Sequence record: PZ738962.1
Direction: 5' to 3' (one strand)
DNA from: a phage
Length of the DNA stretch: 64,000 nt
A model generated the notes under the pieces. The model saw only the letters and a program-made list of their open reading frames with translations, ran no database searches and was not told the origin of the DNA. Of the stretch, positions 32,735 through 52,648 are shown piece after piece (position 1 is the first letter of the stretch; the number at the start of each line of letters is the position of its first letter). Made by a program: the position numbers and the translations under genes.

Positions 32735-33215
32735 TTGCTAAATCATTGCAATATTTTAGTGCCTTAGTTTGAAATTCTGCGCTGTTAAGTTCTTCATAAC
32801 GGTCATAATCACCGTTTAATGCTGCCTTTCTTGCTTCTTGCTCTATCTGCATGTCAGACATGATAATACAGCGATCCCGCGCTTTCATCTTCTCAAGTTG
32901 TATAGACTCTTCTTTCTGCTTGCGCAATTCTTCTTGACGCTTCTTTTCTTCTTGTGCTTTCTCTTCCCGCGCTTCTTTGATTGCATCCTTGAACATCTGC
33001 GTTTGTGGTGCTAAACCAACTTTAACGCGATCCACGTCTCGACGTTCCATTTTAGAAATAAAGCATGATTCGATCTGATCATCACTTGCATATGCTGCTT
33101 TACATTCACGAAGCAAGAAAACCGGATCTGATTTAGCATTCATCATAGCTTCCATGTTGGCACAACCAGTAAGCATGAATGCAGCCGCAAGACCAATCAG
33201 TTTAATCATTTTCAT
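32730..33215 (-). CDS. putative lipoprotein
   Basis: 161 aa; signal peptide with lipobox LTGC; charged K/E-rich segment; start overlaps stop of the upstream ART gene (ATGA). Confidence 0.5.
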   Translation of the reverse strand: MKMIKLIGLAAAFMLTGCANMEAMMNAKSDPVFLLRECKAAYASDDQIESCFISKMERRDVDRVKVGLAPQTQMFKDAIKEAREEKAQEEKKRQEELRKQKEESIQLEKMKARDRCIIMSDMQIEQEARKAALNGDYDRYEELNSAEFQTKALKYCNDLAK

Positions 33216-34036
33216 TTAGTCACCTCACCGAAAATTGTAAATTGTCTACGATTCTCATCGCCGAAAGATTCTACTACGTCGTTTACCTTGACGCAAGTCC
33301 CTCGCGGTAAAATTACTTCACATTCGCAAGGGTTCCATGCAATTGACCCAACAACAAAACCTTTATGATCTTTTACGTCAATTACCCATGATACATTACA
33401 AGAATGTTGCATCTTTCCGGTCATTGATTCATATCGATTCTCACAATAAAGGCTAGTGCTGTTTGATAGCCATCCTCCAAAGATGATCGGTGTCATGCTG
33501 GTAGATACAAAGTTTTTAAAGGTAAACTCCTTATCTTCAATGATACGCTCTATTGTCTGAATGTCAAGATGTTGACCTCGATAAAGAGTACCGTTTAACT
33601 TTTCGGTTTTATCCATGACACAATCCATCAAATCAACAATCTCTGATATCTCATCGGTCATGTCTTCTTCCCCTAAGAGAGCACCATTTACCCATTCGTA
33701 TTGTTCAGACACATAATCACAGATTGCATTATATTCTGCTGGGGTTATGTTGTTATGTTTGTAATGTTTGAATACATTATCTCCAAAGTCTTCGGAGTGT
33801 ACTTCATACATCACATTAATGATTTTCTTGACAAATCCATAATCTTGTGTCTCGCGCTCAAGGAAGCGGATAACCTTCACATAATCATCAAAGTTAATCT
33901 GATCGCTGATCATCTCAGTGATCATGTAACCATTAATCCCCTCAATGTCATATGTTTCGATGTAATTATCCATACGTTCCATCATTGATTCGCGTGATTC
34001 TTCTGAAAGACGAAAATCCTGTAATTTCTTGAACAT
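33212..34036 (-). CDS. Alt-like ADP-ribosyltransferase paralog
   Basis: 274 aa; TLYRGQ...FTFKNFVSTSMTPIIFGGW...CECEVILPRG parallels Alt ILYRGM...FYFKNYVSTSLAPNIFGGW...ECEILLPRG (R-S-ExE motifs). Confidence 0.6.
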   Translation of the reverse strand: MFKKLQDFRLSEESRESMMERMDNYIETYDIEGINGYMITEMISDQINFDDYVKVIRFLERETQDYGFVKKIINVMYEVHSEDFGDNVFKHYKHNNITPAEYNAICDYVSEQYEWVNGALLGEEDMTDEISEIVDLMDCVMDKTEKLNGTLYRGQHLDIQTIERIIEDKEFTFKNFVSTSMTPIIFGGWLSNSTSLYCENRYESMTGKMQHSCNVSWVIDVKDHKGFVVGSIAWNPCECEVILPRGTCVKVNDVVESFGDENRRQFTIFGEVTK

Positions 34037-34114: not shown

Positions 34115-36166
34115 TTACATTTTAAATTTATCTGGCATTGCGTCTACAGATACCAGATCAGCGATAAGCTGACGTAGAGTTGCCTTATCTGCTTTCTTAC
34201 GTTCGGTTTTAGCTTCGCTAATGAAGCTGGAGAAAGACAGGTCAGAAGCAGGTTTAATAACACCTTCACGGATGAATGCATCACCGTCCGCGATCATCTC
34301 GCCAGATTCTTGTAATGCTGCCAGTTCATTTTTGTTCATAATATGTGCCTCAATGTAATAAGTTTCTTGTGAATCCGTCGATGCCGTAGCACGAGTTACC
34401 GTATCAAAGGATAACACAACACCGCGAGGAAGTAAAATCTCGCATTCTTTGTAAGCAAATGCTTTGTTACCTACTGGCAATACAGGGATGTTTTCCGCGC
34501 CAGCAATGGAGAAAGCAACATTAGCGCCACCTTCACCGCGAGAGCCAGCCATAGAATCAACACCAGCAACGGCACTAGCCACGTTTGCATTCCAGCCGCC
34601 AAAAATGTTAGGTGCAAGGGAAGTGCTCACATAGTTTTTAAAGTAAAACGCTTTTTGCTTACGTGCAGTTTCCCACATTTGCGACCGGAAGTCCATACCA
34701 CGATACAGAATAGTACCCGGATCAAGTTTAACGCCATAGTTGGAGAAGGCATTATCCAGTGCATCGCACATCTTGACCAATTCTTCTGGATCTGCGATGC
34801 CTTCAAACTCTTCCAGCTTACGGTCGGTTAGGAAGTTGTTCATATTGATGTATGCTGCATCGGCATATTCGCTCAACACAAAACCTTCCGCGCCTGGCAG
34901 ATCAAGATCAATATCTGCCATCATTTCACCCATGTTGCTAGCAATTGCTTCAAACATACCGGACGCAACATTACGTAGGGCATCGGTTTTAATCTGGGTG
35001 ATATGACTACGCAGCATTTCAGCTTTTACATCTGCTGGCATAGACTGGTCTACTCGATCCATTGCCAGGACGGTGATCTTGTTTTCGAATACTTCCTCGC
35101 TCATGATTTCTTTTAAGCGTTTGACCGAGGCTGCGATAACTTCCGCAGACAATGGATCATATTGATCCTGAACTTTTACCAGTTCGCTTACTGCGTATTT
35201 TGCATCGGCTTCGCTTTCAAAAATAGTACGCATGAAACCATAGCGAGTGATAATATCACTTGTCCAGTCATTCAGAGAACGAGCGGTTGAACGTTCTAAG
35301 GCTTGACGGTCAATCAGAGTATTAAACTGTTTCTTAGGTTCTGCTTCGGTGATATCTTCTTCCGGTTTAAGATTAATTTTTTCTGGATGATTCACATAGT
35401 CGCTGTTATAGGTCGCTTGAGTTTTCAGCATTTCTTCTTTAGTCAAACGAGATTTAGCCGCTACGCGTTGTTCTGCTTCCGCGTTTCGTTCTTCTTCTGA
35501 CACAAGACTAGCCGCATATGCCTCATCTTTAGTCAGAGATTCACCAGTAGCCTTAGATACCCAGCGATCACCTAAATCACTTTCTACTTTAGTGAACAAG
35601 GATTCATCAAGTTTAATCCCTTTAATCTTATCAATCGCCATCCCGCGACGCTTGACAACAACTAAAGCGATCTTTTTGCTGGTCATTACTTCCTGCTGGA
35701 ATACTTCAAACTTCGGTGTACGACGCACCAAACGCTCTATAACGCGCTTAACCAGTTCGGTCTTACCTTTCATGCGGGATACGTTAAAACGGAACATAAC
35801 AGCGTCTAATTGCGCTTTACGGGCTGTTTCCATAACCACATCAAAAGCACTTGACATAACTGCAATCGGGTTATCGCCTAGACCATTTTTAAGCTGTACA
35901 ATACGACCGCTTTTGTTCATTTCGCACAGTACAACATGTGCGGTCTTGTCACCCATACGAATGATTTTAGGTGTTTTGTTGGTGAAGTTACAAAGACGGA
36001 CAATCACATCTTTATCGCGTGTCTGTACTGCAAAAAGTTGTTTAGGATTCTGCTTAGGCTTTAAGCACTGTATCGGAGCAATACTGCCAAAGTTTTCTTC
36101 CTCTTCCGTCAACAGCCATTTCTCGAAAGATTCAATCATTAGATCGTCGATTTCTAAGTTAAACAT
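34115..36166 (-). CDS. alt: Alt ADP-ribosyltransferase (injected internal head protein)
   Basis: 683 aa (T4 Alt about 682); C-terminal ART motifs YRG / STS / ECEILLPRG; position after gene 54. Confidence 0.8.
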   Translation of the reverse strand: MFNLEIDDLMIESFEKWLLTEEEENFGSIAPIQCLKPKQNPKQLFAVQTRDKDVIVRLCNFTNKTPKIIRMGDKTAHVVLCEMNKSGRIVQLKNGLGDNPIAVMSSAFDVVMETARKAQLDAVMFRFNVSRMKGKTELVKRVIERLVRRTPKFEVFQQEVMTSKKIALVVVKRRGMAIDKIKGIKLDESLFTKVESDLGDRWVSKATGESLTKDEAYAASLVSEEERNAEAEQRVAAKSRLTKEEMLKTQATYNSDYVNHPEKINLKPEEDITEAEPKKQFNTLIDRQALERSTARSLNDWTSDIITRYGFMRTIFESEADAKYAVSELVKVQDQYDPLSAEVIAASVKRLKEIMSEEVFENKITVLAMDRVDQSMPADVKAEMLRSHITQIKTDALRNVASGMFEAIASNMGEMMADIDLDLPGAEGFVLSEYADAAYINMNNFLTDRKLEEFEGIADPEELVKMCDALDNAFSNYGVKLDPGTILYRGMDFRSQMWETARKQKAFYFKNYVSTSLAPNIFGGWNANVASAVAGVDSMAGSRGEGGANVAFSIAGAENIPVLPVGNKAFAYKECEILLPRGVVLSFDTVTRATASTDSQETYYIEAHIMNKNELAALQESGEMIADGDAFIREGVIKPASDLSFSSFISEAKTERKKADKATLRQLIADLVSVDAMPDKFKM

Positions 36167-36204
36167 TTTATATCCTCTAGTTGATAACCTATAAACCTAT
36201 ATTT

Positions 36205-36228
36205 ATGAAAAAGGGGCTTAACGCCCCC
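36205..36228 (-). terminator. hairpin ggggc-ttaac-gcccc plus T-run (minus strand)
   Basis: read directly; downstream of the 70 aa gene. Confidence 0.45.
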
Positions 36229-36233
36229 ATTTA

Positions 36234-36446
36234 TTATAATGCACCATCGAGCAATTGCTCTAAGGTGTATCCTGAATAGTCTTTTTCAATCAGGATATAT
36301 TTTCCTACTCGTTTAATACAACCGCGCATTTCAACGTATTCTGCGTAGTTGATGGTACGAGTTGTTCCATCTTCCAGTAATGCAGTACCGATTTCGTTAA
36401 TGCGGTCATAAGTTACGTCGGTAATGATGATTTCGATGTTAGCCAT
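36234..36446 (-). CDS. hypothetical small protein
   Basis: 70 aa; ATG with Shine-Dalgarno; promoter cassette upstream. Confidence 0.4.
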   Translation of the reverse strand: MANIEIIITDVTYDRINEIGTALLEDGTTRTINYAEYVEMRGCIKRVGKYILIEKDYSGYTLEQLLDGAL

Positions 36447-36482
36447 TTGATACTCCTTAGTAGTTCGTTTCGGTATGGGTGT

Positions 36483-36511
36483 ATTATGATATACACCCTC
36501 TGTTATGTCAA
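36483..36511 (-). promoter_or_regulatory. sigma70-like early promoter (minus strand TTGACA-17-CATAAT)
   Basis: plus strand shows attatg...tgtcaa; sits about 37 nt upstream of the 70 aa gene start. Confidence 0.5.
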
Positions 36512-36517
36512 CAACTT

Positions 36518-36697
36518 TTAGAACATTTTTGAAATCAATTCTGCTTTGATTTCGCAGAGAACATCTAAAGATTTCTCGTCACCCGCTTTTGCTGCTTCTG
36601 CTTGCATTTTTGAAATGGCTTCAATGTCAGTGCAATTATAAGCCGCTTGAACTTTAGCGATTGCGATGATTGCCGATTCGATGGTTAAGTGTTTCAT
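36518..36697 (-). CDS. hypothetical small protein (59 aa, below ORF-track cutoff)
   Basis: hand-translated MKHLTIESAIIAIAKVQ...; ATG preceded by AGGAGAATCAAAC. Confidence 0.35.
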   Translation of the reverse strand: MKHLTIESAIIAIAKVQAAYNCTDIEAISKMQAEAAKAGDEKSLDVLCEIKAELISKMF

Positions 36698-36731
36698 GTT
36701 TGATTCTCCTAGTTCGTTTCGGTATGTGTGT

Positions 36732-36761
36732 ATTATAGGGGATCTCCGATCCCCCTGTCAA
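36732..36761 (-). promoter_or_regulatory. promoter-stem-loop cassette (TTGACA, palindromic GGGGGATCGGAGATCCCC spacer, TATAAT)
   Basis: consensus -35 and -10 hexamers on the minus strand with 18 nt palindromic spacer. Confidence 0.6.
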
Positions 36762-36768
36762 CAACTTT

Positions 36769-37287
36769 TTAGTTATTTTTTAATTGCTCATCTTGCAATA
36801 GGGCAATCACATGCTGGCGATGTTCTTCCGATTGAGGAACACCGAAAAAGTTTGTTTTGTAGAAATACTCTAATCGGTCTTCTCGTGTGCTCTCTTCCAT
36901 CATGATCGCGGGTAGTCCGAGATTTCGGAAACGTCGCTTTTCTGCTGACGTAAAATCACTGTAATACAACATAGAATCATCATTACCAGCAATGCTAAAC
37001 TCATCTTTCATAAAGGAGAATATTGCGTTTAAACGCTGTTTACCGTCCACGATTTCGATCTCATAGCGAGAGCCATCATCAATCTTAGCCATTGCGATAG
37101 CACCAACCGGAAAATCATTAATCAGGTTTTCGATAAACATACGTTTGTTTTCGGTGTCCCATACCAAAGGACGCTGATAATCTGGGTTCATGTTGATATA
37201 GCCATCTTCTAACCACGCCTCATAAACAGAGATGACAAAGTTTTTAGTATTGGTATAGTAACGGCGTTTAGGCGTTAAACGGTTCAT
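36769..37287 (-). CDS. DUF262 / ParB-Srx-like domain protein (stand-alone)
   Basis: ORF-track start is TTG; ATG at 37287 has AGGAGA Shine-Dalgarno and abuts the upstream stop; motifs NPDYQRPLVW and VDGKQRLNAI (DGQQR-like). Confidence 0.55.
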   Translation of the reverse strand: MNRLTPKRRYYTNTKNFVISVYEAWLEDGYINMNPDYQRPLVWDTENKRMFIENLINDFPVGAIAMAKIDDGSRYEIEIVDGKQRLNAIFSFMKDEFSIAGNDDSMLYYSDFTSAEKRRFRNLGLPAIMMEESTREDRLEYFYKTNFFGVPQSEEHRQHVIALLQDEQLKNN

Positions 37288-37288
37288 G

Positions 37289-37621
37289 TTATAGTCTCCT
37301 GAATGGATCATCACGTAAATCAATATCTTTTAAGAACTCATCCCATGAATGTCGGATATTGTTCTTAATTCTCCAGATAAGCGCAGGGATTGAACGCTCT
37401 CCCATCTGGAAGTATGGATCATATGATCCGTATGCCCAATATGCTACTACAATTCCACAATCAGCGCAATAATATTCTATTTCACTTGCTGGCGACCAAA
37501 GTCCATCAATATGATCAGTGATCTTGCTTTCGATGTTATGGCTATGACAATCAGGGCAACGGATGCAATGACCTTGTTTATCGTAATTTGACGTTAGCGA
37601 ATACTTAAACAATCTCATCAT
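37289..37621 (-). CDS. zinc-ribbon protein
   Basis: 110 aa; CIRCPDC...YYCADCG (two CxxC pairs); translationally coupled on both sides. Confidence 0.5.
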   Translation of the reverse strand: MMRLFKYSLTSNYDKQGHCIRCPDCHSHNIESKITDHIDGLWSPASEIEYYCADCGIVVAYWAYGSYDPYFQMGERSIPALIWRIKNNIRHSWDEFLKDIDLRDDPFRRL

Positions 37622-38334
37622 AGATCCTTATTTGCTTCAAATACTGCCTTTGCGAATCCTCGCGGGGTAAGTGACCTGATAGTCTTTGTTTTCGTTCCTT
37701 TCCCGCCTAGCTTAGAATGCTGTTTACTGTACCCTTTATTAATCTGCAACGGTTTCTTTTCTGGCATTATAAAGCCTTGTCCGGTCCATAAGCAAGTCTT
37801 TTTCGGGTACATATCACGGGCGGCGATATACTCAGGAAACGTAGGATGTTTATCATCTTCCGGCAAATAACCGCCATATTCCCACGGATGTAACATGTAA
37901 TCAGGCTTACGCCACATACTAGAGATAACGCTTACAGGATTCTCTATCATGTAGGGAACTCCTAGCCATTCACCCAAATAAGCGGTTATTTTAGCTGCCC
38001 GTACATCATGAACTTGAATCAATGGTCCTTGTTCTCGTTTCTTTCGTTCAAAGTGTGCAGCGCCACTAACAGCTAAATTGGTGCACGGTGGGAATGCAAA
38101 GATAATATCCGGTTTCCCCCATTCAAGGTCCATTGCTCTTTCTAGCCAGTTCAAATCAATCCATGTGTTTACATAGGTAATGTTTGGGTGTTCAAATCTG
38201 GTATTATACTTTTTGTATGTGCCGTGGTCGCCATCGTCAGCATTAAAGCAGATCACCTTATGACCTGCTTTAGCCCATTCTAGCCCCATTATCCCCGATC
38301 CGTCAAAGTTACAGAATATTAATTTTTGTTTCAT
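37618..38334 (-). CDS. minimal C5-cytosine-methyltransferase-like protein (no obvious target-recognition domain)
   Basis: 238 aa; motif I-like FCNFDGSGIMG, motif IV-like IIFAFPPCTNLAVSG (Pro-Cys), motif VI-like YMIENPVSV, motif IX-like RSLTPRGFAKAV; collinear with M.HhaI motif order (recalled). Confidence 0.45.
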   Translation of the reverse strand: MKQKLIFCNFDGSGIMGLEWAKAGHKVICFNADDGDHGTYKKYNTRFEHPNITYVNTWIDLNWLERAMDLEWGKPDIIFAFPPCTNLAVSGAAHFERKKREQGPLIQVHDVRAAKITAYLGEWLGVPYMIENPVSVISSMWRKPDYMLHPWEYGGYLPEDDKHPTFPEYIAARDMYPKKTCLWTGQGFIMPEKKPLQINKGYSKQHSKLGGKGTKTKTIRSLTPRGFAKAVFEANKDL

Positions 38335-38576
38335 ATACGCCCCTTTAATCCAACACAGATTTTAGAAGGTTCTTTGCCGTGCCACATTAAGTAAAGTCCG
38401 TTAATGCGGCCTTGTTTTGTATATGATTCTTTTCTGATCTTCTTATAGTGTCGTGCTTCCTCAACTGATTGTTTAGAATACCAATCATAAAGGAAGAGGC
38501 ACAAAGGCCAACCATTAGCGGCCTTAATGCAGTTATTAAGAAATTCCTTATTGCGTTTAATTAATTTTCTTTTCAC
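38331..38576 (-). CDS. hypothetical protein (GTG start overlapping upstream stop)
   Basis: 81 aa; 4 nt overlap (GTGA) with upstream gene. Confidence 0.35.
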   Translation of the reverse strand: MKRKLIKRNKEFLNNCIKAANGWPLCLFLYDWYSKQSVEEARHYKKIRKESYTKQGRINGLYLMWHGKEPSKICVGLKGRI

Positions 38577-38824
38577 GCTGCCCCCATTGGTTTGATAGTA
38601 ACAGAATCTAAAAGACCTTTGTTAGCCAGTTCGCGGCAAGTTTTCAGATCCGCAACTTCCCAGCCAGCCGCAATCAGGTTATCAATCAGGCTGTTAGCAA
38701 CTTCTTCGCTCATGAAAGAGCACTGTTTGCCGATGGTGTAGCGTACACGCTGTAATTTCAGTTTACGGAAGCCTTTAACGTTCAGGTCTTTAGCGATTTT
38801 CTTTGCGGTTTCGATGTTAGCCAT
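38573..38824 (-). CDS. hypothetical protein, first gene of the five-gene operon
   Basis: 83 aa; ATG with AGGAGAATCAAAC; promoter cassette about 40 nt upstream. Confidence 0.45.
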   Translation of the reverse strand: MANIETAKKIAKDLNVKGFRKLKLQRVRYTIGKQCSFMSEEVANSLIDNLIAAGWEVADLKTCRELANKGLLDSVTIKPMGAA

Positions 38825-38864
38825 TGTTTGATTCTCCTAAGTGGTATCTCGTCTTGATGGTTGT

Positions 38865-38893
38865 ATTGTAGGGGAGTTATCCTCCCCTGTCAA
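38865..38893 (-). promoter_or_regulatory. promoter-stem-loop cassette (TTGACA, GGGGAGGATAACTCCCC, TACAAT)
   Basis: palindromic 17 nt spacer between near-consensus hexamers. Confidence 0.55.
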
Positions 38894-38907
38894 CACTTTT
38901 TATAAAA

Positions 38908-39075
38908 TTATTTGTTAATTTCCGGTGCGTTGCTCGGATAGTAACCTTCTTTAACACCCAGATATTTTGCAACCATCCCTACAATCTTCTGTGCTACTAC
39001 AATGTCAAATTTCAGATAATCTTCGCCGTGGGTTTCAATGATATATGCTTCACATGCTGCTTTAGTCTCGAACAT
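38908..39075 (-). CDS. small protein (55 aa), paralog of 42193..42360
   Basis: hand-translated MFETKAACEAYIIETHGEDYLKFDIVVAQKIVGMVAKYLGVKEGYYPSNAPEINK. Confidence 0.4.
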   Translation of the reverse strand: MFETKAACEAYIIETHGEDYLKFDIVVAQKIVGMVAKYLGVKEGYYPSNAPEINK

Positions 39076-39108
39076 TTTGATTCTCCTATATCTCGTTGGT
39101 ATGTGTGC

Positions 39109-39137
39109 ATTATAGGGGATCTCCCGATCCCCGTCAA
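39109..39137 (-). promoter_or_regulatory. promoter-stem-loop cassette (TTGACG, GGGGATCGGGAGATCCCC, TATAAT)
   Basis: read directly. Confidence 0.55.
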
Positions 39138-39151
39138 CAACTTTTTTAAAA

Positions 39152-39433
39152 TTATTCGTGATTAGTTTCGATATTGTGCATTTTGCACCAGTTTAGCCAA
39201 TCACCCAGATCCTGATAGTTAATGCTTTTATCTGCTGCCATCGTTTTTGTCTTGATACCCATATGTGCGTTATGAGTAAGCATTTTTACAGTGAACTCAA
39301 TTTTATCACCTTTAGCTTTAACATCAACCAGTTTGGTCCACTGGCTACCAGCGCCGCGAATGTTCATACCAACGATGTTTCCGATGTATGCTTCTTTGTT
39401 TTTCAGGATTTCGGTTGCTTTGATGAATTTCAT
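39152..39433 (-). CDS. hypothetical protein
   Basis: 93 aa; Shine-Dalgarno plus ATG; cassette upstream. Confidence 0.45.
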   Translation of the reverse strand: MKFIKATEILKNKEAYIGNIVGMNIRGAGSQWTKLVDVKAKGDKIEFTVKMLTHNAHMGIKTKTMAADKSINYQDLGDWLNWCKMHNIETNHE

Positions 39434-39466
39434 TTTTGATTCTCCAGTTCGTTTCGGTATGGGTGT

Positions 39467-39495
39467 ATTATGCTATGTTCTTACTTTGGTGTCAA
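39467..39495 (-). promoter_or_regulatory. sigma70-like early promoter (TTGACA-17-CATAAT)
   Basis: read directly. Confidence 0.5.
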
Positions 39496-39503
39496 CAACT
39501 TTT

Positions 39504-39773
39504 TTAGATATTTTCAGAAATAAATTTTAAAACTTGACGTAAATGTTTCTCATCTTTGATAGTCGCCGGAAGTTCTTCTTTTACTTCCTGTGCAAGATAG
39601 ATATTTCCGTTCCAAGTGAAAGATCCGTCTTCGTTTACGCGATAGCTGAACATCCACTCGCAATCATTTTCGATTTCATATACACACAGAAGGGTGTAAT
39701 CGTTAAAGCTATTGATTTCAAGGTCGAAGCCGTGACGTTTTGCAAAGTTGGTAGTGGTTTTAGTCAGTGCCAT
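39504..39773 (-). CDS. hypothetical protein
   Basis: 89 aa. Confidence 0.45.
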   Translation of the reverse strand: MALTKTTTNFAKRHGFDLEINSFNDYTLLCVYEIENDCEWMFSYRVNEDGSFTWNGNIYLAQEVKEELPATIKDEKHLRQVLKFISENI

Positions 39774-39813
39774 TGTTTGATTCTCCTAAGTGGTATCTCG
39801 TTTCGATGGGTGT

Positions 39814-39842
39814 ATTATGCTATAGGCGTGATCTGGTGTCAA
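39814..39842 (-). promoter_or_regulatory. sigma70-like early promoter (TTGACA-17-CATAAT)
   Basis: read directly. Confidence 0.5.
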
Positions 39843-39863
39843 CAACTTTTTTTAATTTTTTGG

Positions 39864-39892
39864 AAATAAAAAAGCCGACACTAAGGTCGGCT
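39864..39892 (-). terminator. hairpin agccgac...gtcggct plus T-run (minus strand)
   Basis: read directly; downstream of 39900..40208. Confidence 0.5.
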
Positions 39893-39899
39893 AATAAAA

Positions 39900-40208
39900 T
39901 CATTTAGACAAGTAATCATTCTGTGCAATACGGTCGGCGTATGCTGGTGTTACGTCAATCGCAATCACTTTAACGCGTGCTTTCTTGCGACCTGGGTTTT
40001 CTCGTAACCAGTGCTCATGACCGTGAACATTTTTATACTTTGATGCTTCTTCAAATGTACGGATCGGACCTGGATAATCTGCGTAAAGGATCTCTAGGTC
40101 TTCGGTGATGTAAAAATATACATCATAATTACTGTTCTCTAGTTTAAGCAGAGACTTTCGGAACATTGGGAGATTTTCGCGGGTAAATTCAAAGATATTA
40201 TCTTTCAT
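39900..40208 (-). CDS. H-x-H-W family protein, member A
   Basis: 102 aa; YDVYFYITEDL...HGHEHW...KVIAIDV. Confidence 0.5.
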   Translation of the reverse strand: MKDNIFEFTRENLPMFRKSLLKLENSNYDVYFYITEDLEILYADYPGPIRTFEEASKYKNVHGHEHWLRENPGRKKARVKVIAIDVTPAYADRIAQNDYLSK

Positions 40209-40231
40209 AGTATTATCCTCAATAGTTTGAT

Positions 40232-40258
40232 GAAAAGGGGTGGGGCTTAACGCCCCGT
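40232..40258 (-). terminator. hairpin ggggc-ttaac-gcccc plus T-run (minus strand)
   Basis: read directly. Confidence 0.45.
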
Positions 40259-40261
40259 ATA

Positions 40262-40549
40262 TTAAAACAGTCCTTCCTGTACACCGTAGTAGAGTTCATC
40301 GCTGATAATTTCATTAATGCGACGGTGTGCATATTCCTGATTTGCGAAGTTATCAGCAAGTTCTACTTTAGTTTCTCCGTCATGAGTCCATTTAGTGATA
40401 ACTTTACCATCTGCAAATTTGAAGTTGAACTCTTTAGCTACTGCATCGCGTACCAGACGTGCGAACTTGTTATTACGGATTGCATTATCGGTTTCGTGTG
40501 CAGCGTGAGCGAATTTGTTAACTTTCAGAGTGATAGTAATGTATGCCAT
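40262..40549 (-). CDS. hypothetical protein (paralog of 43575..43886)
   Basis: 95 aa; shares VR.A.AKEFN.K motif with 43575..43886. Confidence 0.45.
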   Translation of the reverse strand: MAYITITLKVNKFAHAAHETDNAIRNNKFARLVRDAVAKEFNFKFADGKVITKWTHDGETKVELADNFANQEYAHRRINEIISDELYYGVQEGLF

Positions 40550-40595
40550 AATTTGATTCTCCTAGTTAGAAAGTGTATCTCGTTTCGATGGGTGT

Positions 40596-40624
40596 ATTAT
40601 GCTATACACCCGATCTTATGTCAA
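40596..40624 (-). promoter_or_regulatory. sigma70-like early promoter (TTGACA-17-CATAAT)
   Basis: read directly. Confidence 0.5.
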
Positions 40625-40630
40625 CACTTT

Positions 40631-40909
40631 TTATAAAATAATTTTTTGATATTTTTCTATGATGTTTGTGTAGGTCACGTCAACCGCTAGCACCGTTGCT
40701 TCGAATCCACCGTTTAGCCAATGGCTATGATCATGATCGTGAAAGAAACCAAGACCAGTACGAAGACCTTCTTTATATTCGGCGCGTACATTTAGATCAT
40801 CATCGATAAACAGATAAAACCATGAATTTTTACTAGGATTGATGATACAACCTTTCAGATTAGGGAGAATATCACGACTAAGAATAAACTTATCACCTAC
40901 TTTGAACAT
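40631..40909 (-). CDS. H-x-H-W family protein, member B
   Basis: start moved to ATG at 40909 (GAGGA Shine-Dalgarno); WFYLFIDDDL...HDHSHW...TVLAVDV. Confidence 0.5.
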   Translation of the reverse strand: MFKVGDKFILSRDILPNLKGCIINPSKNSWFYLFIDDDLNVRAEYKEGLRTGLGFFHDHDHSHWLNGGFEATVLAVDVTYTNIIEKYQKIIL

Positions 40910-40913
40910 AATA

Positions 40914-41234
40914 TTAGTCCTCATTTATAAGGTCAAACCAATTGTTTTTCGCATAATGCTTAATGCGTGCTTGATCTGCTTCCGCTGGTGATAGATTCCA
41001 TGCAACCACTACAACTTCTGACGCATCGTCATCCGTTTCTGATACCCAATGATTGTGATTCATACAGTTATTTGCGATCGAGTGAGCAAATGATTTCATC
41101 ACTGGAGACGTATAATCATAGTAACGGATTTTCAGATTTTCATCAACGTACAAATAGATCGTATAAGGTTTATATTCAGTAACCAGTAACAGACAGTTAC
41201 GCAATTCTGGGAAAATCTTTTTAGTTAATTTCAT
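40914..41234 (-). CDS. H-x-H-W family protein, member C
   Basis: start moved to ATG at 41234 (GAGGA Shine-Dalgarno, directly after upstream stop); YTIYLYVDENL...MNHNHW...VVVAWN. Confidence 0.45.
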   Translation of the reverse strand: MKLTKKIFPELRNCLLLVTEYKPYTIYLYVDENLKIRYYDYTSPVMKSFAHSIANNCMNHNHWVSETDDDASEVVVVAWNLSPAEADQARIKHYAKNNWFDLINED

Positions 41235-41235
41235 T

Positions 41236-41454
41236 TTATAATCCTCGGTCGCGGCTATAGTACACGGTACGCCATACAATTTCATGTTTCGTGTCGCTCC
41301 AGCACACGATCTCATTTACTCTTAAATCTTTGTTATCAACAAAAGATGAACATTGTGACGCTTCTTTCATCATTTTATCTGCTGTTTTCTCATCAAATAC
41401 AGCACAGATTTCTTTATACACTCGATAATCTTTGAATTGACTCTGAATACCCAT
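41236..41454 (-). CDS. hypothetical small protein (paralog of 41414..41671)
   Basis: 72 aa; shares F.EKMM..AS.C.SF with the next gene. Confidence 0.4.
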   Translation of the reverse strand: MGIQSQFKDYRVYKEICAVFDEKTADKMMKEASQCSSFVDNKDLRVNEIVCWSDTKHEIVWRTVYYSRDRGL

Positions 41455-41671
41455 AATTCACACCATTCCAACCAATTGTTTTTGAGAAAACGTTTATCCA
41501 CTGTTGAGTGTAACATGTTTCTTTCCATGATACAATACGAGTAGAATAATGGTTTTTGTTTCCAGAAAAGGACGGGCATTTTGATGCATCTTCCATCATC
41601 TTTTCGGCGAACTCTGGTGCGTATACTCGCAGGATCTGTTGATATGCTTTGTATTCTTTAAATTTGCTCAT
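41414..41671 (-). CDS. hypothetical small protein (paralog of 41236..41454)
   Basis: start moved to ATG 41671 (AAGGT Shine-Dalgarno). Confidence 0.4.
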   Translation of the reverse strand: MSKFKEYKAYQQILRVYAPEFAEKMMEDASKCPSFSGNKNHYSTRIVSWKETCYTQQWINVFSKTIGWNGVNYGYSESIQRLSSV

Positions 41672-41936
41672 AATCATTCACTACCTTATCAGCTTCTTTT
41701 GTTGTTTTTACATCAACTGCGATAACTCGTAAAGGTTCGTCATGGTTCCACCAGTGGTCATGAATATCAGCTTGTGATTTATCACCAAAGGAATCACGAA
41801 TATCATTTTTACATTTATAGCTAATGTGACCTTCATAGTCAACATAAAGGTAATTATCGAAAATCGGCGTTTTTAAGATCATACCGAAAAATCTTTCTTT
41901 GTGTGTCTTATCCAGCGTTGCAGTAATTCGCATCAT
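41658..41936 (-). CDS. H-x-H-W family protein, member D
   Basis: 92 aa; NYLYVDYEG...IHDHWW...RVIAVDV. Confidence 0.5.
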   Translation of the reverse strand: MMRITATLDKTHKERFFGMILKTPIFDNYLYVDYEGHISYKCKNDIRDSFGDKSQADIHDHWWNHDEPLRVIAVDVKTTKEADKVVNDYEQI

Positions 41937-41948
41937 AATATATTCCTC

Positions 41949-42128
41949 TTAGAAAGGGATGGTCATTTCTTGAGCTTGTACATTCTCGTTAGGATTAAAC
42001 TTCATCCAGCCGATATTGTCTACCAGCATATGCACATTTTTATCATATCCTACGTGAGTAGTCAACACTAAATGTGCTTTATCTTCAATGATGAGTTCCA
42101 TGTACTTCTGAACTTCGATAGCTTTCAT
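41949..42128 (-). CDS. hypothetical small protein (59 aa, below ORF-track cutoff)
   Basis: hand-translated MKAIEVQKYMELIIEDKAHLVL...; Shine-Dalgarno plus ATG; cassette upstream. Confidence 0.3.
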   Translation of the reverse strand: MKAIEVQKYMELIIEDKAHLVLTTHVGYDKNVHMLVDNIGWMKFNPNENVQAQEMTIPF

Positions 42129-42160
42129 TTTGATTCTCCGTTTGTTGTCTTGATGGGAGT

Positions 42161-42189
42161 ATCTTACTACTCCCTTTAATCATTGTCAA
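42161..42189 (-). promoter_or_regulatory. promoter-stem-loop cassette (TTGACA, palindromic GGGAGTAGTA spacer, TAAGAT)
   Basis: read directly; same cassette type as 51787, 52294. Confidence 0.45.
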
Positions 42190-42192
42190 CTA

Positions 42193-42360
42193 TTATTTGT
42201 TAATTTCTGGTGCGTTGCTCGGATAGTAACCTTCTTTAACACCCAGATATTTTGCGACCATTCCGGTGATCTTCTGTGCTACTACGATATCGAATTTCAG
42301 GTAATCTTCACCGTGGTTTGCTACAATGTATGCTTCGCATTCTGCTTTAGTCTGGAACAT
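42193..42360 (-). CDS. small protein (55 aa), paralog of 38908..39075
   Basis: ORF-track start 42447 runs through the promoter; ATG 42360 gives MFQTKAECEAYIVANHGEDYLKFDIVVAQK... Confidence 0.4.
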   Translation of the reverse strand: MFQTKAECEAYIVANHGEDYLKFDIVVAQKITGMVAKYLGVKEGYYPSNAPEINK

Positions 42361-42394
42361 TTTTGATTCTCCTATATCTCGTTGGTATGTGTGC

Positions 42395-42423
42395 ATTATA
42401 GGGGATCGGTGATCCCCTGTCAA
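42395..42423 (-). promoter_or_regulatory. promoter-stem-loop cassette (TTGACA, GGGGATCACCGATCCCC, TATAAT)
   Basis: perfect consensus hexamers, 17 nt palindromic spacer. Confidence 0.6.
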
Positions 42424-42430
42424 CAACTTT

Positions 42431-42739
42431 TTATTCTTCATCTTCATTTTTATCTTTATATGCGTACTTCATAAATTTGTCTGCTACTTTGTCCGCGTTT
42501 TCAGGTTCGACGTCTGACGCTAGGACAACAGCTAGTTCGGTTTTGTCGTTTCCATCATACCAATGATTATGAGTGTCGTTTTCTTCGATATAAAACGAAT
42601 CATTTGGAGTTGTGCGACAATATACGTCTAAATTCCCGTCGATATAAAAGATCCAATCCGAATACAAAATGATTGCTTTAGCCAGATTTTTATTGTCTCT
42701 TACAAAAGGTTCCGCGACAAATAGCTTAGTATGTTCCAT
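42431..42739 (-). CDS. H-x-H-W family protein, member E
   Basis: start moved to ATG 42739 (GAGGA Shine-Dalgarno); WIFYIDGNL...DTHNHW...LAVVLASDV. Confidence 0.5.
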   Translation of the reverse strand: MEHTKLFVAEPFVRDNKNLAKAIILYSDWIFYIDGNLDVYCRTTPNDSFYIEENDTHNHWYDGNDKTELAVVLASDVEPENADKVADKFMKYAYKDKNEDEE

Positions 42740-42755
42740 AGTATTTTCCTCAAAA

Positions 42756-42947
42756 TTATACAGCTTCGTAAACTTCCCAATGTCCAACACCAGCACGCTT
42801 AACGAAAAGGTTTTCTTTGATGTTATTCATAAACGTCTGGATGGATTTAATGCGGTTTGAAGGTTTCCAGTCTTCGTTGGCATTGCGTCGATACATCATA
42901 ACATTACCAGTTCGCTTATATTCAGCAACCATTTTAAGACCACACAT
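42756..42947 (-). CDS. hypothetical small protein
   Basis: 63 aa; GAGGA Shine-Dalgarno. Confidence 0.4.
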   Translation of the reverse strand: MCGLKMVAEYKRTGNVMMYRRNANEDWKPSNRIKSIQTFMNNIKENLFVKRAGVGHWEVYEAV

Positions 42948-43003
42948 AATATTATCCTCAATTTGTGGGAGAGTATTACCCTCCCGATTATTGTTATACT
43001 ACA

Positions 43004-43306
43004 TTACGCAAAATGGCGTGTCAATGCTTCTTTTGCTGTTCCGCTAAGATTCTCGATCTCTCCTGGCATAACATCAACCGCAAGAACTTCTACAACATCC
43101 TCTGATCCTAACCAGTGAGTATGACCTTTGTAGAACTTGATATCCCATTTATCGCTATCGCTAGCCCACCACACATCACCGTCGATAAAGTTGATGTAAA
43201 GCACACTACGCCACATTGAATTAATTACTTTCAATACTGCGCCTTTCATCTCTTCCACGGTGTGGTCTTCCATTTTGAAGACCTCGCCTACCTTAACTTT
43301 TGCCAT
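43004..43306 (-). CDS. H-x-H-W family protein, member F
   Basis: 100 aa; LYINFIDGDVW...KGHTHW...EVLAVDV. Confidence 0.5.
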   Translation of the reverse strand: MAKVKVGEVFKMEDHTVEEMKGAVLKVINSMWRSVLYINFIDGDVWWASDSDKWDIKFYKGHTHWLGSEDVVEVLAVDVMPGEIENLSGTAKEALTRHFA

Positions 43307-43323
43307 TTAGTCACCTCTCTTTA

Positions 43324-43503
43324 TTACATAACAATCACGCCCGCCGTTGAAAGTTGATGTTTCAACTGAGCATTTTCTGCTACCGTCAAATCAATGATTT
43401 CTTGTGACGCTGCAATCATATAGCCATTGGTGATATTGTTTTGCATCAGTTCAATGGTTTCTTCGTTGTAGCGGATTTTAGCGATGATTTCGTTGAAGTT
43501 CAT
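43324..43503 (-). CDS. hypothetical small protein (59 aa)
   Basis: ORF-track start runs into the promoter; ATG 43503 with AGGAGAATCAATT. Confidence 0.35.
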   Translation of the reverse strand: MNFNEIIAKIRYNEETIELMQNNITNGYMIAASQEIIDLTVAENAQLKHQLSTAGVIVM

Positions 43504-43537
43504 AATTGATTCTCCTAGTTCGTTTCGGTATGTGTGT

Positions 43538-43566
43538 AGTATAGGGGATCGGTGATCCCCTGTCAA
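43538..43566 (-). promoter_or_regulatory. promoter-stem-loop cassette (TTGACA, GGGGATCACCGATCCCC, TATACT)
   Basis: read directly. Confidence 0.55.
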
Positions 43567-43574
43567 CAACTTTT

Positions 43575-43886
43575 TTAAAGTTTTTCCATGATAACGGTCA
43601 TAATTACATCTTCTGCGCGAGCGGTCAGATTATCAGCGTCAGCATGTGGGCGGCTGGTTGTTACAGAGATAACACCGTTGCGCACTGGTTTGATGTTGAT
43701 ATCAAGATGATCCGCGAAACGTTCGCCAGTTACAGAATGAATTTTGGTGTTAAATTCTTTTGCCAGTGCCTTGCGAACTTCACGAATCAGGGTAGCGTTT
43801 TTCAGTTGGTTCTCCGCGCTCATGGTCTTCTGGGTGTTCATGGTTCCGTCGAAGTCAATCATTGGCAGCGTTACGATGTATTTCAT
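43575..43886 (-). CDS. hypothetical protein (paralog of 40262..40549)
   Basis: start moved to ATG 43886 (MKYIVTLPM...); shares KEFN.K motif. Confidence 0.45.
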   Translation of the reverse strand: MKYIVTLPMIDFDGTMNTQKTMSAENQLKNATLIREVRKALAKEFNTKIHSVTGERFADHLDINIKPVRNGVISVTTSRPHADADNLTARAEDVIMTVIMEKL

Positions 43887-43931
43887 TTTTGATTCTCCGT
43901 TTAAGAAAGTGTGTTTCGTTTTGATGTGTGT

Positions 43932-43960
43932 AGTATAGGGGATCACCGATCCCCTGTCAA
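43932..43960 (-). promoter_or_regulatory. promoter-stem-loop cassette (TTGACA, GGGGATCGGTGATCCCC, TATACT)
   Basis: read directly. Confidence 0.55.
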
Positions 43961-43972
43961 CAACTTTTTGAA

Positions 43973-44449
43973 TTATTTTTCTTGATGCTCGCGATCGTAC
44001 TTTTCGAAATAAAATTCTACTGGCTGGTCGTGGATTGACAGCAAGCCAAAGCGTTTAGCCGCTCGCAATCCCATATTGCGCTGAATGTACTTCTGGAAGT
44101 TCTCGCGTATACACTTACGCCAGTATTCTAAGCCCATACAGCTTTTATAAAGATTGCATTGCACACACGCCGGATTCATGTTATCAAGTATATCATGCTC
44201 CGGTTTATGCATTCCTACAACCTTATATTTCCATGATCCATCATCATTACGGGCAATTCGTCCATTTTCATCATAGACTACCTTTGAGCGTCGCAATACT
44301 GGTTTGATGTGGTCCGCGTGCCAGCGATCCCCTAGTTCCTCGCCACAATAGGCACAACGTCCACCATATTTCATTTTCAGGATCTGGCGTTGCTCTTTCT
44401 TTGACAATTTTTTAGGTTTAGGGGCTTTCGCCCCTTCATTATCACACAT
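43973..44449 (-). CDS. HNH homing endonuclease (Mob-like), free-standing upstream of ligase
   Basis: 158 aa; CAYCG...HADHIKP...N...CVQCN (HNH with zinc-binding Cys pairs); stop overlaps ligase start region. Confidence 0.65.
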   Translation of the reverse strand: MCDNEGAKAPKPKKLSKKEQRQILKMKYGGRCAYCGEELGDRWHADHIKPVLRRSKVVYDENGRIARNDDGSWKYKVVGMHKPEHDILDNMNPACVQCNLYKSCMGLEYWRKCIRENFQKYIQRNMGLRAAKRFGLLSIHDQPVEFYFEKYDREHQEK

Positions 44450-45938
44450 CGAATACCTCTTTTACTGTATTTGCAGTGGTCTTGTCGTAGCGAATACGTT
44501 TGATGATTGGGAGAAATAAAGAGAACTCCGGTTCATCTTCTTTACGTGATTTGCTGCGGATATACCCGTTGCATGTCATCTCAATGACTTTTCCAATCAG
44601 GTTATGACGGTCAGCCCATAACATTTCTCGGTCGAGTTCATTTCGACGATCGAACGGAATTACACGTTCGATACCATCATCACCTTTTTCGGTTGTAGTG
44701 TCGGTTAATCCCGATCCGGTGTTAGTCATCATTCGTCCGCACGCACTACGGACAGTAAAACCGCCTACCTTATTGGGGTCTTTACTATGCGGATATACAT
44801 CAACAATTTCCGCGTCGAAGTCAATCACTTCTTTAAATTTAACCTGATCTTTACTACGGCGATCTTCAAATACACCATGTAAATTTTTAAGGATAATACC
44901 TTCTAAGCCCATGTTGACATAACGATGATATACTTCGCGAGCTTCATCGATATTGTTAACTACAGTGTTTTCGATGATCTGAACACGAGGATCGTTAAGT
45001 TCTTCAACAATCTGTTTTAGTTCTTCGAATCGATCTTTATATTGCTTCGTTGCTTTCTCGTTTCCGTAATACACATCACGGTCGATAACATCCCAGACAG
45101 TGTAAACAATACATTGGGCTTCTTCTTTTGGAATAGTTCCTTTAAGTGATTTGTTGAGGATACCATTTCCGGTCTGACGATCTGCAACAACGGATTCTTT
45201 CACTGCTTCCGCTACTGGCGTTAATGGCATTTCCTCTTCTTCAAATATCCATGACAGAGTACCATCATAAACGCTTTCAACGAAGTTCTGCGCTGGTGTT
45301 TGAGAAAGGGTAGGCATATATACCAATTCGCCATCTAGAACAATTCCACGGCCTCGTAGACGCTCTAAAACCGCAAACAAATCATCAAGCCCTTGATAGG
45401 TATTACCTGAGCGGGTATAGATTGCTAATGTTTCCCCGTCAATATCAGCCATACCACGAGCGCCATCGCTTTTAAGTTGTGCATACGCCGGATACTTGAT
45501 ATTAGCAATCGTCTTATCAGAACATGACGATGCAAGGTGGCACGGTTGCTGGGGGATCAGTTTCTTCCATACCTTGTTTGCAGTGGTAGCGGAACAGCCG
45601 CATTCCAGATCACGATTCAGGACCATCATTGCAACTTTAGCATCATCCTCTGACAAGCAAGTCAGAGTATCGGTAACTAGTTGTAATGCTGCATTACCAG
45701 TTACTTGACGCGTGGCAAGTTTATTTTTAAAGACCTGTAATGCACCGGATAAAGACAATACAGACGAATAGCGAGACGGTTTATCGTATTTCTTTACGCC
45801 AAACGTAACCTGTTTGCAATATGCCAGATAAAAGCATTCTTTCAGCGTTTCATTGCTTGCTGATTCTTTCAGAATCTTTTCTTTCAGCGATGTTTTGTCT
45901 GTTGCTGCAAGCTGATTAATGATATTAAGAATTGACAT
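44442..45938 (-). CDS. 30: ATP-dependent DNA ligase gp30
   Basis: ORF-track start is GTG; ATG 45938 with GAGGTG Shine-Dalgarno; adenylation motif AQLKSDGAR (KxDG); collinear with recalled T4 ligase. Confidence 0.9.
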   Translation of the reverse strand: MSILNIINQLAATDKTSLKEKILKESASNETLKECFYLAYCKQVTFGVKKYDKPSRYSSVLSLSGALQVFKNKLATRQVTGNAALQLVTDTLTCLSEDDAKVAMMVLNRDLECGCSATTANKVWKKLIPQQPCHLASSCSDKTIANIKYPAYAQLKSDGARGMADIDGETLAIYTRSGNTYQGLDDLFAVLERLRGRGIVLDGELVYMPTLSQTPAQNFVESVYDGTLSWIFEEEEMPLTPVAEAVKESVVADRQTGNGILNKSLKGTIPKEEAQCIVYTVWDVIDRDVYYGNEKATKQYKDRFEELKQIVEELNDPRVQIIENTVVNNIDEAREVYHRYVNMGLEGIILKNLHGVFEDRRSKDQVKFKEVIDFDAEIVDVYPHSKDPNKVGGFTVRSACGRMMTNTGSGLTDTTTEKGDDGIERVIPFDRRNELDREMLWADRHNLIGKVIEMTCNGYIRSKSRKEDEPEFSLFLPIIKRIRYDKTTANTVKEVFDV

Positions 45939-51753: not shown

Positions 51754-51786
51754 CTTGATACTCCTTAGTTGTTTTGGTATGGGAGT

Positions 51787-51815
51787 ATCTTACTACTCCC
51801 GTGATATGCTGTCAA
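51787..51815 (-). promoter_or_regulatory. promoter-stem-loop cassette (TTGACA, palindromic GGGAGTAGTA spacer, TAAGAT)
   Basis: read directly. Confidence 0.45.
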
Positions 51816-51824
51816 CTGCTTTTT

Positions 51825-51974
51825 TTATGCAACCGCAAACATCAACATTTGAACATTCTTGGCTGTCTGGCTTTCAAAGTTCTGACATTCTTTGATAATG
51901 TCCTCTACTTTCTCGCCGGAGATCTCCGCGTAAGTTTCGATTGCCATTTTCAGTACCGCGTCAAAGTTGTTCAT
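51825..51974 (-). CDS. hypothetical small protein (49 aa)
   Basis: hand-translated MNNFDAVLKMAIETYAEISGEKVEDIIKECQNF...; AGGAGAATCAA Shine-Dalgarno. Confidence 0.3.
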   Translation of the reverse strand: MNNFDAVLKMAIETYAEISGEKVEDIIKECQNFESQTAKNVQMLMFAVA

Positions 51975-52012
51975 TTGATTCTCCTTAAAGTGTATTTCGT
52001 TTCGATGGGGGT

Positions 52013-52041
52013 ATATTACTACCCCCGTTTCATGCTGTCAA
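52013..52041 (-). promoter_or_regulatory. promoter-stem-loop cassette (TTGACA, palindromic GGGGGTAGTA spacer, TAATAT)
   Basis: read directly. Confidence 0.45.
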
Positions 52042-52260
52042 CTACTTTTTAATGACAAGTTCGAATTTTGCTACCTTGCGTCCTCGTTTATTGAAAGCAA
52101 CCCACGGACGGTTTTCAATGTAGAACAATTCTTCGCCAATAATGAATACTGGCTGATTGTAAAGGCGACCCATCAGGTCACGCTGGCGAATGGTAGTAGA
52201 TTCGTATACTTCTCCTACTACAAAGTGTTTGCTGATAGAGTCGGTGCAAGTAAATTTCAT
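52042..52260 (-). CDS. hypothetical small protein
   Basis: 72 aa. Confidence 0.35.
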   Translation of the reverse strand: MKFTCTDSISKHFVVGEVYESTTIRQRDLMGRLYNQPVFIIGEELFYIENRPWVAFNKRGRKVAKFELVIKK

Positions 52261-52293
52261 TTTGATTCTCCTTTGTTTCGTTTCGATGGGAGT

Positions 52294-52322
52294 ATCTTAC
52301 TACCCCCGTTATTCAGTGTCAA
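52294..52322 (-). promoter_or_regulatory. promoter-stem-loop cassette (TTGACA ... TAAGAT)
   Basis: read directly. Confidence 0.45.
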
Positions 52323-52329
52323 CTACTTT

Positions 52330-52548
52330 TTACTTGTTGTATTCATTCCACCACTGGGTGAGCTTATCAATTATTTTTGTGTTTCTATCCAACTTCTCCC
52401 ACCGTTTTCTAGGGTTTATCAACCGGAATAGGTAAGGTGTACTTGTTAAGTGAACTCGGTCAATGTAGTGATTGATGTACTGCTTTTCAATTCTAAGTTT
52501 CATCTTTTTACGATGAAAATGTGCAATGACTTGTTCTTCTGTTTCCAT
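52330..52548 (-). CDS. hypothetical small protein
   Basis: 72 aa. Confidence 0.35.
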   Translation of the reverse strand: METEEQVIAHFHRKKMKLRIEKQYINHYIDRVHLTSTPYLFRLINPRKRWEKLDRNTKIIDKLTQWWNEYNK

Positions 52549-52572
52549 ATGTTCCTCCGTTTCGATGTGCGT

Positions 52573-52601: not shown

Positions 52602-52648
52602 CACCCAATAACAAAAAAGTCGCCACTATGGGCGACTTTGAACAAACA

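Follow-up and report, generated by a model that had tools for sequence, protein, structure and literature searches.

The window analysed here, a stretch of 64,000 nucleotides (nt) of phage DNA from the sequence record PZ738962.1, carries two similar blocks at positions 38908-39140 and 42193-42425, and it raises the question of how one small gene came to be present there twice, each time with its own promoter. An earlier note, made from the sequence alone, had taken the blocks for a near-identical and recent segmental duplication in a hotspot of duplication. The comparisons presented below make it highly probable that they are old paralogous cassettes of the open reading frames (ORFs) ORF191 and ORF205, each formed by a promoter-early stem-loop (PeSL) and an ORFan gene within the hyperplastic region HPR3, which have gone on recombining since and have been used as repeats for deletion.

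The duplicated unit and its genomic setting

The alignment of the two blocks gave 207 identical columns out of 235 (88%), and the best local alignment score in the surrounding kilobase was 345, compared with 24.8 ± 2.2 (maximum 31) for 100 shuffles. A similarity of this size is far beyond chance and the identity of the blocks clearly exceeds the background, as the earlier note had expected, but at 88% the wording "near-identical" was overstated. Each block consists, as had been proposed, of a 55-amino-acid (55-aa) ORF and the cassette upstream of it; the gene with its promoter is present twice. Both copies are 168-nt ORFs on the minus strand and belong to phrog_8009: copy 1 (38908..39075, beginning MFETKAACEAY) is the ortholog of ORF191 of phages RB49 and Phi1, and copy 2 (42193..42360, beginning MFQTKAECEAY) is the ortholog of their ORF205. 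The two proteins are 89% identical (E 2e-32). The mechanically delimited ORF of copy 2 extends to 84 aa, and the 55-aa start is supported by the ribosome site GGAGAATCAAAAATG.

The limits of the unit were taken from an alignment of both copies with flanking sequence, drawn from the window and from seven other genomes. Homology runs from the A-tract just 5' of the -35 box to the stop codon, where a different PeSL starts: the promoter of ORF190 (38825..38907, minus strand) bounds copy 1, and the promoter of ORF204 (42129..42192, minus strand), whose stem-loop overlaps the -10 box, bounds copy 2 (both detected with nhmmer). The unit is one PeSL-to-PeSL period (244 nt and 234 nt), and it holds what a single-gene PeSL mini-circle would be expected to contain.

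The window is a Krischvirus genome, i.e., that of an RB49/Phi1-like T4-type coliphage. Between 36400 and 44000 it is 94-98% identical to some forty complete Krischvirus genomes (RB49, Phi1, GEC-3S, JSE, kvi, Delraymugoa and others), and its gene order between the alt ADP-ribosyltransferase gene and gene 30 (DNA ligase) is that of Phi1 ORF185-ORF212, gene for gene. This region (36.2-44.4 kb, ORF185-ORF212), in which all genes lie on the minus strand, is HPR3, the locus of RB49 and Phi1 where Arbiol et al. 2010 defined PeSLs (PMC2839356). As described there, a PeSL is a composite of ~100 bp in which a consensus sigma70 promoter with a G/C-rich stem-loop follows an AT-rich tract, where the upstream gene usually has its stop codon, and which is completed by the Shine-Dalgarno sequence and ATG of the next ORFan; a genome carries ~52 of them, mostly in hyperplastic regions, and they mediate gene shuffling (PMC2839356). 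PeSL206/205, when cloned, was an active promoter (~13,000 Miller units in a lacZ test), and the stem-loop of PeSL211/210 acted in a lacZ test as a transcription terminator comparable to rrnB T1 (PMC2839356). Mini-circles resulting from recombination between two PeSLs were sequenced, one with ORF191-194 and one with ORF210 alone, the latter of ~400 bp and demonstrated experimentally in RB49/Phi1; the same authors showed the excision of PeSL circles and merely proposed their re-insertion (PMC2839356). The element type, the locus and these very genes are already present in the literature and databases, and the blocks are largely explained by the published PeSL system.

Anatomy of the cassettes

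The search with nhmmer, using a profile built from the cassettes, located 11 of them in 36.4-44.0 kb, that is, within ~7.5 kb. Their layout on the minus strand is TAAAAAAGTTG-TTGACA-N17-TATAAT-ACACNCAT(A)CCGAAACGA...-GGAGAATCAAA-ATG. In the alignment of the 11 cassettes the AT-rich tract TAAAAAAGTTG stands directly before TTGACA, and GGAGAATCAAA(N)ATG, the Shine-Dalgarno sequence with the start codon, is present in all 11, which are located between alt and gene 30. Ten sites with at least 11 of the 12 positions of the sigma70 consensus TTGACA-N17-TATAAT were found in 36.0-44.5 kb, all on the minus strand and directly 5' of an ORF, compared with 0.5 expected from a first-order Markov model. A stem-loop of -12 to -19 kcal/mol is formed in 9/11 cassettes. 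In six of these a GGGG(A)TC-N3-5-GA(T)CCCC hairpin fills the promoter spacer exactly, and in three the hairpin lies over the -10 box; both kinds match subclasses described for PeSLs (PMC2839356). The two remaining cassettes have none.

The cassettes before the two 55-aa ORFs are each ~75 nt long and of the same type; in both the A-rich tract contains the upstream gene's stop codon, and the leader is conserved and has a strong Shine-Dalgarno sequence. The PeSL 5' of ORF191 (39076..39150, minus strand) comprises the A-tract, TTGACG, a 17-nt spacer, TATAAT, the leader and GGAGAATCAAAATG, with a promoter score of 11/12; its stem-loop GGGGATC-GGGA-GATCCCC lies in the 17-nt spacer (-13.9 kcal/mol; nhmmer E 7e-22). 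The PeSL 5' of ORF205 (42361..42436, minus strand), which corresponds to PeSL206/205, is composed of TTGACA, GGGGATC-ACC-GATCCCC, TATAAT, the leader and the Shine-Dalgarno sequence, with a promoter score of 12/12 (nhmmer E 1e-20).

Age of the pair and selection

The coding sequence matched 63 records at 115 places, of which 59 records are Krischvirus and four are distant Salmonella phages. Two copies are present in 52/59 Krischvirus records, including RB49, Phi1, GEC-3S and JSE. In the window the copies differ at 21 nucleotides and 6 amino acids, with a synonymous divergence (dS) of 0.60, a nonsynonymous divergence (dN) of 0.055 and a dN/dS of 0.09. Moreover, dS is uneven along the gene, 1.18 in nt 1-102 and 0.16 in nt 103-165, and 19 of the 21 nucleotide differences fall within the first 99 nt (P=0.002). 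Neither low synonymous divergence along the whole unit nor confinement to one lineage, as would mark a recent duplication, was found, and the word "recent" in the earlier note is contradicted by these results. Because dS is high, dN/dS is 0.09 and two copies occur across the genus, the pair is old and both copies are under strong purifying selection.

The ORF205 protein is 100% identical in 45/71 phage records and in the majority of Krischviruses. Its neighbours ORF206 (42431-42739), ORF203 (41658-41936) and ORF201 (41236-41454) occur as alleles of just 57-70% identity, which indicates a frozen ORF205 gene surrounded by allele replacement.

Gene conversion between the copies

The comparison of alleles was based on 14 sequences of the ORF191 locus and 15 of the ORF205 locus. 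Fixed differences between the loci are restricted to nt 33, 36, 39, 41 and 93-96, with none 3' of nt 96. Nearly every minority allele at the remaining sites matches the allele seen at the other locus, and in certain genomes such alleles stand side by side as a tract: in PTE-Eco09 over nt 7-24 of the ORF191 locus, in Brandy and PTE-Eco09 over nt 57-75 of the ORF205 locus, and in the window, kaaroe, Sf20 and kvi over nt 108-120 of the ORF191 locus. Mosaic tracts, shared polymorphisms and heterogeneous divergence (P=0.002), the signs of interlocus conversion, are all present. Likewise, the leader of ORF191 in the window, CCAACGAGATATAGGAG, is of the ORF205 type, and a generic leader, CCGAAACGAA, occupies this place in Phi1, RB49, GEC-3S and FL04. 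As judged from these alleles, the likeness of the 3' third of the gene and, in the window, of the PeSL leader would be due to repeated interlocus gene conversion and not to youth. Because the ORF191 leader is generic in Phi1, RB49 and GEC-3S, part of the similarity between the cassettes of the two blocks is secondary, a result of conversion in the lineage of the window.

Deletion between the repeats

The segment between the repeats (39145..42430, minus strand, ~3.3 kb), with the 12 genes ORF193-ORF204 and one repeat unit, is absent in phages Cognac and FL04, which have a single 55-aa gene between ORF190 and ORF206. The junction of Cognac is of the ORF205 type (RB49 allele) through the spacer stem-loop and of the ORF191 type from the leader on; in FL04 the switch occurs already at the A-tract/-35. 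Because the crossover points of Cognac and FL04, both of which map within the PeSL, differ, at least one and probably two independent deletions took place from two-copy ancestors by recombination inside the duplicated unit. Between the repeats there are two perfect matches of 47 nt, which is enough homology for recombination, near the figure of <50 bp that is said to suffice for T4-type recombination, known to act on short homologies (quoted in Arbiol et al., PMC2839356).

ORF191 was lost by deletion between two PeSLs in Brandy and JK32 (38912/39076) and in MIZ4 (36487/39076), and PeSL-bounded deletions account for all 7 single-copy genomes. The same holds for the region as a whole: in the comparison of 36000-45000 with eight related phages, every insertion or deletion has its breakpoints at PeSLs, e.g., 36487/36710, 38912/39076, 36487/39076, 42432/43506 and 43592/43915. 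The region is rich in paralogs, as the term "hotspot of duplication" implied, but it is more aptly called a hotspot of homologous exchange among PeSL cassettes. Such exchange yields indels, allele replacement, conversion and occasional duplication, in agreement with the published description of HPR3 (PMC2839356).

The slot beside ORF191 (~39150) is empty in the window and in Phi1; RB49 carries there an ORF of 158 aa with a signal peptide, and JSE an unrelated signal-peptide ORF of 103 aa. The extra 312-nt ORF of JSE beside ORF191 was considered as a transposed copy of ORF210 and rejected, as it is an unrelated signal-peptide ORFan.

Origin of the pair

The copy would have arisen long ago via homologous exchange between PeSLs, and the favoured route, on which we place about half of our confidence, is that an excised PeSL mini-circle was re-inserted into another PeSL. 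Afterwards both copies have been kept by strong purifying selection and have repeatedly swapped short tracts by gene conversion, by which the 3' third, and the PeSL leader in the window, became homogenised. The copies also act as direct repeats, leading to the loss of 3.3 kb with 12 early genes and one 55-aa copy. The comparison of genomes shows the unit boundaries, the age, the purifying selection, the conversion tracts and the deletion between the repeats, and promoter strength, termination and mini-circle formation, including that of ORF191, are expected here by analogy with published work on orthologous cassettes.

Several points weigh against this account. The promoter and terminator activities of the cassettes in the window are transferred from orthologous PeSLs of Phi1/RB49, the base-by-base examination covered 16/59 related genomes, and the original route of the duplication cannot be reconstructed. 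The generic leader of the ORF191 PeSL in Phi1, RB49 and GEC-3S makes part of the cassette homology in the window secondary. Finally, the AlphaFold model of the 55-aa protein is weak (predicted local distance difference test, pLDDT, 66), too low for a fold search.

The re-insertion of a mini-circle is favoured over two other origins. The stronger of them, to which we give a sizeable but clearly smaller share of belief, concerns the origin only and assumes a tandem duplication by unequal crossover of flanking PeSLs followed by the stepwise insertion of ~3.3 kb of cassettes. The short homologies used by T4-type recombination would permit the crossover, the interval holds five further PeSLs and is itself highly variable, and the age of the pair allows many events; against this, several extra insertions are needed where re-insertion of a mini-circle needs one event, and none of the 63 records (59 from Krischvirus) with a match to the coding sequence has adjacent tandem copies. 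It is improbable that the copies are xenologs, i.e., two related cassettes captured independently from other phages, each at its own PeSL, and made partly alike afterwards. In favour of it, unrelated siphoviruses of Salmonella and Escherichia carry the family with its own promoter, phages can exchange PeSL cassettes (PMC2839356), the 5' synonymous sites are saturated and the cassettes preceding the two copies differ in leader type in Phi1/RB49. However, the copies are each other's closest relatives (87-89% aa identity vs. 66-70% for Skatevirus), they agree in length and stop context, and outside Krischvirus we found no donor lineage with either type alone.

The near-identity of the 3' third might also be due to an RNA or DNA signal embedded in it, so that selection on the nucleotides, and not conversion, preserves it. 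We regard this as very unlikely: dS is a mere 0.16 in nt 103-165 and this part abuts the next promoter, but its polymorphisms are common to both loci and differ between genomes, which amounts to concerted variation, and conversion tracts are found in the 5' and middle parts too. Moreover, the Skatevirus homolog keeps KEGYYPSNA with different DNA (68% nt identity), the PeSLs 3' of the two copies differ in type, and Rfam gave no match anywhere in 36.0-44.5 kb. Least credible of all is a recent, lineage-specific segmental duplication in which 88% identity means little elapsed time; the blocks are highly similar in the window, the non-coding cassette included, but nearly the whole genus has both copies, dS reaches 0.60 for the whole gene and 1.18 in its 5' part, the differences are very unevenly spread over the gene, and Phi1, RB49 and GEC-3S show less similarity between the cassettes.

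Returning to the old, recombining PeSL cassettes, a more specific picture can be offered tentatively, and we consider it rather doubtful as a whole. The pair may be the natural footprint of mini-circle re-insertion within one genome, now serving as a 235-nt "handle" for the reversible excision or loss of a 12-gene early module as a ~3.3-kb circle, and the conversion-resistant islands (codons 11-14 and 31-32) may distinguish sub-functionalised versions of a host-targeting mini-protein.

Comparison with known systems

The closest system is that of the PeSL and ORFan cassettes of RB49/Phi1 (PMC2839356; Comeau et al. 2014, PMC4122927), with which the window shares the genus, the locus, the cassette anatomy and the breakpoints at PeSLs. 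In the published PeSLs the stem-loop lies between -35 and -10 or over -10, as in the window, and the published PeSL206/205, PeSL211/210 and mini-circles of ORF191-194 and ORF210 are orthologs of features of the window. The main value of the analysis is a clean negative: the striking repeats are published PeSL cassettes, found at the locus of their definition. The two PeSL papers (PMC2839356, PMC4122927) make no mention of ORF191/ORF205 paralogy, gene duplication, interlocus conversion or deletion between duplicated cassettes. The additions to the known system, namely this paralogy, the concerted evolution of the copies and the Cognac/FL04 deletions, are modest: one cassette is present twice, its likeness would be kept by gene conversion and not by youth, and the natural isolates Cognac and FL04 exhibit the predicted repeat-mediated loss of a 12-gene block. 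With the pair and the deletions, both the insertion half and the deletion half of the PeSL shuffling model gain examples that can be tested.

Three other systems are comparable in part. Morons (Hendrix et al. 2000, via PMC2839356) are likewise single accessory genes with their own promoter and terminator; they presumably insert by illegitimate recombination, are often antisense and lack conserved flanking linkers, whereas in the window the regulatory cassette is the recombination substrate and all units are co-oriented. Integron gene cassettes also form arrays of small, promoter-served, individually excisable and circle-forming cassettes, but here integrase and attC/attI sites are absent, every cassette brings its own promoter, and general homologous recombination is used (comparison in PMC2839356). 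Non-allelic homologous recombination and interlocus conversion of dispersed paralogs (PMC10503786) produce the same mosaic tracts, shared polymorphisms, islands of fixed divergence and interval loss; unlike dispersed paralogs generally, the unit here is of 235 nt, in a lytic phage genome, and the copies are 3.3 kb apart.

The 55-aa protein

The Pfam scans of 20 small ORFs, among them the 55-aa protein, gave nothing above the cut-off. In PHROGs the protein matches phrog_8009 only, annotated as "unknown function", and the other PHROG families of the region carry the same annotation; significant matches of the 55-aa genes to a curated family or solved fold were absent. The homolog search returned 5 clusters only, all near-identical or truncated. 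The AlphaFold model suggests two helices (residues 5-16 and 18-39) and a disordered tail. The C-terminal tail is invariant, GYYPSNAPEINK, with KEGYYPSNAPEINK as the conserved tail.

Outside Krischvirus, homologs occur in a few Salmonella/Escherichia siphoviruses: Skatevirus SeSz-2 and Pu29 (66-70%) and Sasha and PDP46 (44%). In SeSz-2, a 45-kb Salmonella siphovirus, the homolog stands behind its own TTGAC-N17-TAGAAT promoter and an ATCGAAA-type leader (3985-4210). This arrangement suggests that the module of promoter and 55-aa gene moves between phage families.

ORF191 and ORF205 would be transcribed by the host RNA polymerase immediately after infection, and their product would be a small two-helix immediate-early mini-protein with a conserved C-terminal tail, probably directed at the host, as its promoter and location suggest. 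As a highly conserved early protein retained in two copies, it is a candidate for functional study.

Other cassettes of the window

The remaining PeSLs of HPR3, all on the minus strand and detected with nhmmer, are the promoters of ORF185 (36445..36536), ORF186 (36696..36783), ORF193 (39432..39523, without a stem-loop), ORF194 (39775..39868, without a stem-loop), ORF198 (40551..40644), ORF209 (43503..43594) and ORF210 (43885..43981), the last corresponding to PeSL211/210. Nine weaker cassette matches, again all on the minus strand, lie outside this region: four fall in 51.7-52.6 kb, and the others stand singly near 54.8, 59.7, 60.1, 61.1 and 20.1 kb. The four form a second PeSL cluster (51755-52605), in which they are spaced by 220-290 nt and each serves an ORF of 49-72 aa.

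Two canonical intrinsic terminators with a GC stem and a T-run are present on the minus strand, at 39873-39892 after ORF197 and at 36212-36228 after ORF185. They are additional to the PeSL stem-loops, which are without T-runs.

Other paralogs in the region

Further paralogs had also been proposed in the earlier note. For ORF201 (41236..41454, 72 aa) and ORF202 (41414..41671, 85 aa), both on the minus strand, a tandem relationship was confirmed, with 40% identity over 63 aa (E 8e-13) and common membership of phrog_8471. The 3' end of ORF202 overlaps the start of ORF201 by 41 nt. In the window and in RB49 ORF202 has 85 aa and the overlap; in Phi1 and GEC-3S it has 69 aa and no overlap. The profile of the family covers residues 1-69 of ORF202 only, and because it stops there the tail looks like a stop-loss or frameshift extension.

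The proposed pairing of ORF198 (40262..40549, minus strand, 95 aa) with ORF210 (43575..43886, minus strand, 103 aa, with a PeSL on both flanks) held in part: BLASTP gave no match at E<=1, but a 24-aa Smith-Waterman match (z=6.5, 0/2000 shuffles) and a common phrog_7474 make them remote, at best ancient, relatives.

The six-member family was recovered in full, with an invariant H-x-H-W and pairwise z of 2-20. Its members, proteins of ~100 aa that also share a V-x-A motif, are encoded on the minus strand by ORF197 (39900..40208), ORF199 (40631..40909), ORF200 (40914..41234), ORF203 (41658..41936), ORF206 (42431..42739) and ORF208 (43004..43306). The profile of the family found only 17 representatives among 1.84 billion proteins, and the family has no known relative by fold. 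A larger ancient block duplication, in which ORF210..205 would correspond to ORF198..191 in the order phrog_7474, H-x-H-W and 55 aa, was considered and rejected, as the family member closest to ORF197 is ORF200 rather than ORF206 or ORF208. The three 59-aa ORFs (186, 204 and 209) have no detectable relatedness to one another.

Duplicated sequences are found in other parts of the window as well. The short ADP-ribosyltransferase gene beside alt is paralogous to the catalytic C-terminal part of Alt (37% over 109 aa; 33212-34036 and 34115-36166). The 343-aa ORF beside gene 32 (60100-61131, minus strand) contains three internal Cys-rich repeats of ~63 aa (F-x-G-F-I-G-E-W...C-x-x-G-H...C-P-x-C), followed by a different C-terminal domain. 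The ORFs at 54301-54483 and 54468-54650 form a small tandem paralog pair with 37% identity.

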